Virus record (IMG/VR): IMGVR_UViG_3300037295_000263
Location: 32,001 to 96,000 of that record
Origin: a virus
Taxonomy: Duplodnaviria; Caudoviricetes
DNA: 64,000 bases
Strand: one strand, 5' to 3'
The notes under the pieces are model-generated. The model ran no database searches, was not told the DNA's origin, and saw only the letters and a list, made by a program, of their open reading frames with translations. Made by a program: the position numbers and the translations under genes. Positions within the stretch are counted from its first letter, which is position 1. Every line of letters starts with the position of its first letter. Shown piece by piece: positions 3,577 to 4,643 of the stretch.

Positions 3577-4431
3577 ATGTCAGATCAACCTATTAAACAA
3601 CCAAATCCTCTTGCTAATTACTTTAGGCAACCAAAATTATACATCAAGCTGCCCAGTAATGGAAAGTTTTATCCCGACGGATCGTTGGACATTAGTGAAA
3701 TAGGAGAATATGCAGTATATGCTATGACTGCTAAAGACGAGTTGATGTTTAAAACACCCGATGCATTAATGAACGGCCAATCTACAGTGGAAGTTATTAA
3801 AAGCTGTGTTCCTTCTATTAAAAATCCATGGATAATGCCCAGCATTGACATAGATGCAGTATTGATTGCTATACGAATAGCAACGTATGGCGAAGAAATG
3901 GAGTTTACTTCGTCGTGTCCCCAGTGTAATCATTTTAACGATTTAGTTTTTAAATTAACTAGTTACTTGGACATAACTAATGACTTCGATTACGAAGAAG
4001 AAATAATGATAGGTCCGCTGACACTTTTTATTAGACCTTACACTTACAAAGAGATCAGTAAACATGCAATCAAAACTCTTGAGCAACAAAAGATTTTATC
4101 AATTGTCAATGACGAAAACTTATCTGACGAAGAAAAAATCAATCAGTTCGGTGAAAGTTTTGTCAAGTTAACAGAATTAACTGTTAGTGTTGTTGCTGGC
4201 TGCGTTTACAAAATAGTAACTCCTGATACTGTTGTAGAAGATAAAGATCAAATATTAGAATTTATTACTAACAGTGATAAAGAAACATTTAATGCTGTAA
4301 ATTCTCGTATAGCCGAACTTAAAGAAAAAATTACACTGAAGAGTCAAGAAATAACTTGCGAAGAATGTAGTCATCAATTTAAGATAGACATTACCTTGGA
4401 TCAATCTAATTTTTTCGCAGTAGGATCTTAA
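3577..4431 (+). CDS. gp26: Baseplate hub subunit / tail assembly protein, T4 gp26-like
   Basis: NPLANYFRQPKLYIKLPSNG, MTAKDELMFKTPDAL, IRIATYGE, CPQC and CEEC Cys pairs; GGAG RBS upstream. Confidence 0.75.
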   Translation: MSDQPIKQPNPLANYFRQPKLYIKLPSNGKFYPDGSLDISEIGEYAVYAMTAKDELMFKTPDALMNGQSTVEVIKSCVPSIKNPWIMPSIDIDAVLIAIRIATYGEEMEFTSSCPQCNHFNDLVFKLTSYLDITNDFDYEEEIMIGPLTLFIRPYTYKEISKHAIKTLEQQKILSIVNDENLSDEEKINQFGESFVKLTELTVSVVAGCVYKIVTPDTVVEDKDQILEFITNSDKETFNAVNSRIAELKEKITLKSQEITCEECSHQFKIDITLDQSNFFAVGS

Positions 4432-4454
4432 GTCTCTCTCAACTAGAGATCCTG
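4410..4454 (+). promoter_or_regulatory. Putative -1 ribosomal frameshift signal (slippery heptamer plus downstream stem)
   Basis: T TTT TTC at 4410-4416, 5-nt spacer, then AGGATCT (4422-4428) pairing with AGATCCT (4447-4453). Confidence 0.6.
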
Positions 4455-4643
4455 AGTTACGTACAACAACTAGAAAAAGAAGCAAGAGAGATCAAAAAAG
4501 ATTTATTGAAAATCTGTTGGTATATGCGCGGCCTAAGCTATCAAGAAGCACTGAATTTAGATATCGAAGAGCGAAAGATAATCGGAACAATCATTAAAGA
4601 CAATTTAGAAACAACAAAGAAAACAGGATTGCCTTTCTTTTAA
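4410..4643 (+). CDS. gp51-like C-terminal extension in the -1 frame of the gp26-like gene (probable frameshift product, ~355 aa total)
   Basis: The -1 frame opens right after TAA 4407-4409, at slippery T TTT TTC, and stays open to TAA 4641-4643: RSRILSLSQLEILSYVQQLEKEAREIKKDLLKICWYMRGLSYQEALNLDIEERKIIGTIIKDNLETTKKTGLPFF. Confidence 0.65.
   Translation, partial: FFRSRILSLSQLEILSYVQQLEKEAREIKKDLLKICWYMRGLSYQEALNLDIEERKIIGTIIKDNLETTKKTGLPFF

Follow-up and report, generated by a model that had tools for sequence, protein, structure and literature searches.

Tail assembly chaperone genes of long-tailed phages carry a conserved -1 frameshift, which also occurs in contractile tails (P2 E/E+E'), and the work of Levin in 1993 and of Xu, Hendrix and Duda in 2004 is reportedly the source for lambda gpG/gpGT and for the conservation of this tail-chaperone frameshift. 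T4-type phages are, to our knowledge, not counted among its users, and since the 1970s T4 gp51 has been termed an essential "catalyst" of hub assembly whose function is unknown. The lambda G and GT proteins are absent from virions and are made at a ratio of about 30:1, the G part binding the tape measure and the T part the tube protein (PMC5009743). In T4, gp26 and gp51 are listed among the hub assembly chaperones, and gp51 is required yet absent from the particle (PMC3004832). Here we describe a gp26-family gene (3577..4431, + strand) of an uncultured giant phage of the T4-like kind, in a stretch of 64,000 nucleotides (nt), called the window below, which covers positions 32,001 to 96,000 of IMG/VR virus record IMGVR_UViG_3300037295_000263 (Duplodnaviria; Caudoviricetes). 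Judging from its sequence and conservation, we consider it very likely that this gene is decoded in two ways via a -1 frameshift, giving short and long forms of a baseplate-hub chaperone.

The open reading frame (ORF) 3577-4431 matches phrog_150 ("baseplate hub"; E 2.8e-17) and PF12322 (T4_baseplate; E 2e-17, 64 bits for a cut-off of 24.5, with positions 9-218 of the 219-position profile aligned). No other PF12322 gene is present in the virus record, a sequence of 216.7 kb with an estimated completeness of 59%. Two CxxC knuckles of the short form (C114/C117 and C261/C264) are invariant, and the protein has an NFF motif at its C-terminus. Its closest cultured relatives (31-36% identity) are the giant myophages Phosso, Atu_ph07, PA5oct, CBB, RaK2, 121Q/PBECO4, BF and fHe-Yen9-04, and its metagenomic homologues number in the thousands (7,523 clusters at 90% identity). 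The fHe-Yen9-04 gene (668-1543 of the examined stretch) is misnamed "Lead, cadmium, zinc and mercury transporting ATPase", probably due to the CxxC motifs.

Slippery heptamer, -1 frame and predicted hairpin

The gp26-like ORF starts at ATG 3577, 7 nt after a ribosome-binding site GGAG (3566..3569, + strand), and ends at TAA 4429-4431 after 284 amino acids (aa). Its final frame-0 codons (AAT TTT TTC GCA GTA GGA TCT TAA) include the slippery heptamer T_TTT_TTC (4410..4416, + strand) in the X_XXY_YYZ register, four sense codons ahead of the stop. In the -1 frame, a TAA at 4407-4409 is followed by an open stretch from 4410 to 4640 (77 codons, FF plus 75) and then by TAA 4641-4643, so that the extension read after a slip (4416..4643, + strand) comprises 75 codons. 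The predicted products are 284 aa and 355 aa long, residues 1-280 being common to both. In the -1 frame, the earliest ATG, GTG or TTG is TTG 4506 (codon +32 from the slip site) and the earliest ATG is 4524 (codon +38); sequence inspection found no GGAG-type site upstream of either. The GGAG at 3566-3569 demonstrates the use of Shine-Dalgarno sites by this phage, and no such site precedes the internal starts of the -1 frame. Since the -1 frame is closed just upstream of the slip site, the conserved first 32 codons can be reached only via a change of frame.

According to the mechanism we propose, most ribosomes would terminate at TAA 4429 and yield the 284-aa short form, while a minority would shift by -1 on U_UUU_UUC (4410-4416) and continue for a further 75 codons, yielding a 355-aa long form with a small helical C-terminal domain. 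The presumed trigger of the slip is a pause of the ribosome at a putative hairpin located 4-5 nt downstream (4421..4454, + strand). The analysis establishes the signal and its conservation, selection for coding in the -1 frame and how the family members are related; we infer the occurrence of frameshifting itself, its efficiency and the binding partners of both forms.

The heptamer alone carries no significance: the window contains 46 copies of TTTTTTC against 39.6 +/- 5.9 expected. Only two real genes of the window have it as an in-register sense heptamer, namely the gp26-like gene and the gene at 39423-40364. In the latter (heptamer at 39860-39866), the -1 frame ends after 3 codons and a slip would only truncate the product. 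The significance of the gp26-like heptamer stems from its conservation. Our comparison covered 98 loci, made up of the window itself, 7 genomes of isolates and 90 contigs of metagenomic or viral origin; 67 of the loci are distinct around the site, and protein identity spans 31-82%. In all 98, TTTTTTC is present in register 1-11 codons before the stop and is followed by a -1 ORF of 72-79 codons; this set takes in RaK2, 121Q, CBB, fHe-Yen9-04, PA5oct, Atu_ph07 and Phosso, at 31-36% identity. The residue encoded just ahead of TTT TTC is N, H, S, R or D according to the lineage, yet the third base of its codon is always T. A wobble base that is constant under five amino acids points to selection on the nucleotide and not on the protein. 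We also surveyed 50%-identity clusters through 150 representatives, which share 32-57% identity with the query: frame 0 ends 0-12 residues past the FF motif in 134 of them, and in none of the 150 is the extension in frame with the gp26-like core.

Among 59 distinct 77-codon ORFs, pN/pS (nonsynonymous relative to synonymous polymorphism) is 0.276 in the -1 frame versus 1.26 and 1.49 in the other two frames, and the entropy by codon position is 0.65/0.43/1.28. Judged by these patterns, the -1 ORF is under purifying selection as a protein from the slip site onward. Indeed, the nucleotides just past the heptamer differ between loci (CGC AGT AGG ATC, CGG CAA AGG ATC, CGT AGC AGG GTC) and the -1 peptide R-x-R-[IV]-L is kept despite this variation, while the frame-0 tail varies. 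Across relatives, the earliest codon that could serve as a start of the -1 frame lies anywhere between -18 and +38 relative to the slip site, and PA5oct has none. The database homologues of the extension (881) have been called with inconsistent starts; accordingly, the gene-called mini-ORF proteins are 57-95 aa long with unrelated N-termini. No precomputed Pfam domain was found on these database mini-ORFs, and a PHROG scan of the extensions returned only phrog_18291, a family of separately annotated mini-ORFs. No joined coding sequence (CDS) is annotated in the inspected records of relatives. One of the mini-ORFs is misnamed "GTP cyclohydrolase I" in its source.

Downstream of the heptamer, the stem AGGATCT (4422-4428) / AGATCCT (4447-4453) extends to a 9-bp helix (4421-4429 with 4446-4454), within which lies a small 3-bp inner helix. 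The hairpin has a minimum free energy of -13.1 kcal/mol (z -2.1), and 7 of 200 shuffled sequences fold equally well. Covariation was evaluated in 58 distinct sequences of the close clade, over alignment columns 11-20 with 37-46, which correspond to window positions 4420-4429 and 4446-4455. The helix cells are paired in 87.9% of cases versus 81.2% in shuffles and 33-50% when the partners are slid by 1-3 columns, and the covariation score of 0.228 (0.144 in shuffles) was reached by none of 500 shuffles. At pair 14-43, for example, 30 sequences have G-C and 20 have A-U, and at pair 15-42 the counts are 49 G-C, 6 A-U and 3 G-U. In several of the compensating changes, an R-to-K replacement in the 5' arm is accompanied by a synonymous Leu or Ile codon in the 3' arm. 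This covariation is supportive and not proof, because the sequences are related and both arms are coding. PA5oct and Atu_ph07 have stable hairpins of their own (z -3.2 and -3.6). The arrangement recalls E. coli dnaX (A_AAA_AAG plus a downstream hairpin) in its X_XXY_YYZ heptamer, short spacer and simple stem-loop; however, the dnaX shift truncates its product whereas the window shift would extend the protein, and dnaX also uses an upstream Shine-Dalgarno-like stimulator, none being established for the window.

An earlier note, made from the sequence of the window alone, had proposed this programmed -1 frameshift. Its coordinates, heptamer register, -1 frame limits and 284/355 aa products were all correct on re-reading; its 7-bp stem is present and extends to 9 bp, and its remark that TTG 4506 and ATG 4524 lack a well-placed ribosome-binding site agrees with our inspection. 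The note had suggested looking for conservation of the heptamer and stem in homologues. The heptamer proved to be in register at every locus compared; the stem covaries in the close clade and is not significant in the RaK2/121Q/CBB/fHe-Yen9-04 group. Homologues devoid of the heptamer and with an independent conserved start for the downstream ORF, which the note regarded as contrary evidence, were not what we encountered, the heptamer being universal in the set and the possible starts scattered. Taken together, the conserved heptamer, the purifying selection, the lack of a conserved start and the covarying stem strongly support a -1 frameshift.

Relation to T4 gp26 and gp51

Both T4 proteins, gp26 (208 aa) and gp51 (249 aa), have matches in PF12322 and phrog_150. 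Along the phrog_150 profile, gp26 and the window ORF stop at position 235 of 282 and gp51 reaches position 280, so that gp51 amounts to a gp26-like core lengthened at its C-terminus by about 48 aa. The two T4 genes are divergent neighbours; gene 26 ends with ...EFFELL, its codons GAG TTC TTT GAG are non-slippery and its -1 frame holds the start of gene 25. The gp51- and gp26-type genes are divergent in RB49 as they are in T4, unlike in RB43, where they stand in tandem on the same strand (51, gap, 26, 25; 64.6-65.9 kb of the record).

The fused giant-phage profile is colinear with the gp51 profile from the core through the extension (hhalign P 1.9e-5), and the giant-phage extension alone aligns with the gp51 C-terminus at P 1e-4 to 2.4e-4 (probability 44-58%). 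In these alignments, FFR-x-[IL]L...P-[ED]-E-I is paired with F-K-LL-x-PDE-[IV], and ...SY-x-E-x-x-N-[LM]-x-x-x-ER... with ...Y-x-x-x-S-I-x-x-M-I-P-x-ER.... A narrow hidden Markov model of T-even gp51 recognised even the giant-phage core poorly and was therefore uninformative on the extension. Pfam has a newer gp51 C-terminal family, PF28602. The window gene and the T4 pair are alike in belonging to the same family, in the short form ending at the FF motif of gp26 and in the colinear alignment of the predicted long form with gp51, which is of modest significance in the extension. They differ in that T4 has two separate divergent genes where the window has one gene with predicted recoding, and in the length of the core (284 aa versus 208 aa). 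The short form would be the counterpart of T4 gp26 and the long form, most probably, that of T4 gp51.

T4-like phages with a single gene provide a bridge between the two arrangements. The "gp51" of cyanophages and vibriophages has about 20% of the T4 length and matches only its C-terminus (Sullivan et al. 2010, PMC3037559). We found a single PF12322 gene in each of S-PM2, P-SSM2, KVP40, Aeh1, HTVC008M, phiM12, Vi01 and RM378. In S-PM2, P-SSM2, KVP40 and Aeh1, this gene ends with ...FF-x-stop and carries T_TTT_TTC in register; in HTVC008M and phiM12, the slip site is T_TTT_TTT. The -1 ORF opening at the slip site is the annotated short gp51 (S-PM2p208, KVP40.0327) and is unannotated in Aeh1. 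When the -1 peptides of the single-gene phages were compared with the C-terminus of T-even gp51, they matched from the junction onward with a probability of 97% (P 1.1e-10). The heptamer is absent from T4, RB49 and RB43, the phages that have 26 as well as 51. The short gp51 ORFs of cyanophages and KVP40 resemble the window ORF in being small -1 ORFs directly after gp26 that start at the same T_TTT_TTC; they differ in being annotated as independent genes of 55-57 aa with an ATG a few codons past the slip, the window ORF being longer (75 codons), more diverged and devoid of a usable start. The PF12322 gene of Vi01 ends with ...TEIFI-stop, in a sequence (GAA ATT TTC ATT TAA; about 2240-2450 of the examined stretch) that does not follow X_XXY_YYZ. 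RM378 has a T7 run (TCC TTT TTT TGG) near the end of its gp26-like gene (about 2010-2270 of the examined stretch).

The earlier note had read the locus as a gp26-like core joined to a gp51-like tail, and this is supported by the PF12322 and phrog_150 matches, the hhalign colinearity and the bridge offered by the short gp51 proteins. On the simplest reading, the arrangement of one gene plus frameshift is widespread and probably ancestral, and the T-even lineage would have hard-wired the long form by duplication; T-even phages would then appear to have swapped recoding for two separate paralogous genes.

Alternative explanations

The downstream ORF could be an independent small gene ("short gp51"), translated from its own start or by termination-reinitiation at the gp26 stop and never fused to the core. 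It is so annotated in 121Q, fHe-Yen9-04, CBB, Phosso, S-PM2 and KVP40, phrog_18291 is a family of such small proteins, and an ATG lies 3-5 codons past the slip site in some lineages. However, the first start in the window (codon +32) has no ribosome-binding site and would lose the conserved N-terminal third, and the -1 frame of the window is shut by a TAA directly upstream. Across relatives, the possible starts range from -18 to +38, none existing in PA5oct, whereas the peptide is conserved right from the slip site; the heptamer is kept at the nucleotide level, with its wobble T under five amino acids; and T4 gp51 is a covalent fusion. A separate gene is plausible only where an ATG stands just past the slip site and cannot explain the window, PA5oct or RaK2, so that we regard it as improbable for this locus. 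Still less probable is that the long form arises through slippage of the RNA polymerase on the T6 run, with one extra U in some of the mRNAs. The site is a homopolymer, which reaches T7 in HTVC008M, phiM12 and RM378, and the +1-frame extension-like ORF of RM378 could be reached by a different number of slipped bases. Productive transcriptional slippage in bacteria usually needs runs longer than six or seven T's, and the T6-T7 runs found here are shorter than this. Moreover, the exact X_XXY_YYZ register in every locus and the covarying hairpin, at a spacing typical of ribosomal -1 frameshifting, argue for the ribosome and against the polymerase.

Chance or artefact, that is, a homopolymer sequencing error splitting one long gene or a fortuitous association of ORF and heptamer, is the least credible explanation and appears very remote to us. 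Homopolymers are error-prone in some sequencing chemistries, and TTTTTTC is common in the AT-rich window (46 copies for about 40 expected). Nevertheless, the same T6C, early frame-0 stop and -1 ORF recur in 98 independent assemblies or isolate genomes from different laboratories and platforms, the frame-0 stop falls 0-12 residues past FF in 134/150 cluster representatives, and the -1 frame is under strong coding selection.

Several observations weigh against a -1 frameshift, or against the identity of its product with gp51. The frameshift itself is a prediction from sequence. The window hairpin is not exceptionally stable (z -2.1), and folding of the RaK2/121Q/CBB/fHe-Yen9-04 group gives no significant structure (z -1.1 to +0.6). 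In several relatives (121Q, Phosso, Atu_ph07, S-PM2, P-SSM2 and KVP40), the slip site is followed after 3-5 codons by an ATG, and the annotation treats the ORF as a gene of its own. Vi01 has a -1 gp51-like extension without the canonical heptamer, and the extension-like ORF of RM378 (about 75 codons) lies in the +1 frame and not in the -1 frame, for which a +1 shift, slippage during transcription or an error in sequencing the homopolymer may be responsible. Finally, the sequence match between the giant-phage extension and the gp51 C-terminus is significant but modest; for the extension alone, HMMER returned nothing and BLASTP gave no match to T4 gp51.

Comparison with lambda G/GT, genomic surroundings and significance

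The layout of the window gene resembles that of lambda G/GT: the -1 slip would occur close to the 3' end of a gene that encodes a non-virion tail assembly protein and adjoins a tape-measure-like gene, giving an abundant short form and a rare, C-terminally extended form. It differs in its much larger core, a Zn-knuckle protein of 284 aa, and in that the tape-measure-like gene is divergent instead of downstream. This neighbour (615..3527, - strand; 970 aa, likely start ATG 3512) encodes a large virion protein, possibly the tape measure, and is syntenic and homologous across the giant-phage clade. Its RaK2 counterpart is annotated as similar to tape measure protein and its PA5oct counterpart is a structural protein by mass spectrometry. 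Language-model feature matches to tape-measure and lytic-transglycosylase clusters (0.89-0.94) serve as a lead only, and no Pfam or PHROG match was found for this protein. The T4-type tape measure (PF25671) and tube protein (PF06841) are not detectable in the 59%-complete record. PF25671 is likewise undetectable in five single-gene T4-like phages, so that profiles cannot settle the identity of the tape measure. In S-PM2, the gene after gp26-gp51 has tape-measure PHROG and tail-lysozyme matches; KVP40 has a tube paralogue, 26, short 51 and a 656-aa ORF in succession; in T4, gene 51 heads the operon 51-27-28-29. These gene neighbourhoods fit the G/GT comparison loosely.

The core and the extension were folded separately. 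The AlphaFold2 model of the core is a two-CxxC-knuckle alpha/beta protein (predicted local distance difference test, pLDDT, 78.9) that matches many phage "baseplate hub" models, with a template modelling (TM) score of up to 0.84, and that of the extension is a small helical domain (pLDDT 89.4). The gp26-like ORF has no tail-chaperone match in Pfam or PHROG, and no solved structure related by sequence was found. Foldseek against the PDB returned nothing at E <= 0.001, the HK97 chaperone 2ob9 ranking 27th (E 0.67, not significant); VIA-align gave only generic helical-hairpin matches (residues 153-213); and a BFVD search with the extension model returned only small uncharacterised phage proteins, the "tape measure chaperone" rows having E > 2. 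For core residues 139-252 (window 3991-4332), the top AlphaFold-DB Swiss-Prot matches are three uncharacterised 140-aa proteins of Xylella fastidiosa (PD_0970, PD_1186 and XF_1585/XF_1690; probability 0.95-0.98, E about 0.05, TM 0.34-0.40), which may be prophage proteins.

By analogy, we would therefore describe the gp26/gp51-type gene as resembling G/GT in its layout, without filing it as a member of the G/GT family. The earlier note had seen in gp26/gp51 the functional equivalents of G/GT; the likeness of layout holds, comparisons of sequence and fold found no similarity to known tail chaperones, and the equivalence stays an analogy. The layout, the neighbouring tape-measure-like gene and the T4 literature suggest such an equivalence and a chaperone role. 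If the comparison applies, the shared core would hold the tape measure or the hub, and the rare extension would recruit a second partner in a fixed low ratio.

The surroundings of the gene are T4-like, with a gp46/47-type nuclease, a gp55-type sigma factor, a SegE-like nuclease, gp5-, gp25- and gp6-like baseplate genes and fibres. The baseplate and fibre block (13377-39413) contains a gp5-like hub/lysozyme (13377-15023), a gp25-like gene (15027-15464), a gp6-like wedge (15507-18899), a 4,027-aa ORF (18901-30984) and four fibre-like genes with a common N-terminal module (phrog_15511/14394). A large non-coding gap (4644-5192) separates the -1 ORF from the SegE-like GIY-YIG gene (5193-5621, - strand). 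The sole public sequencing run with window positions 3400-4900 is a DNA run, probably the source of the record, and is labelled "salt lake metagenome"; no RNA run is listed for this stretch.

We found no published description of a 26/51 frameshift in the full-text literature, in a coverage that leaves out most subscription journals, and baseplates go unmentioned in a 2016 recoding review. A wider proposal is that the 26-to-51 frameshift is ancestral in the whole T4 superfamily (giant RaK2/PA5oct-type phages, cyanophages, pelagiphage, KVP40, Aeh1 and phiM12 groups), that gp26/gp51 take the place of G/GT in T4-type phages, chaperoning the tape measure in hub/tube initiation, and that T-even phages lost the recoding by duplication and hard-wired the long form. 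We see the chances for and against this proposal as evenly balanced. If it is true, T4-like phages would no longer be the standing exception to the conserved tail-chaperone frameshift, and the 50-year-old "catalytic" gp51 would gain a mechanism. Should slippage be the source of the long form, gp26/gp51 could be modelled in a concrete and testable way, with long and short chaperone in a fixed low ratio. In hundreds of T4-like and giant-phage genomes, a "hypothetical" mini-ORF or a "short gp51" would then have to give way to one joined CDS, and T-even phages would offer a worked example of gene duplication replacing recoding.

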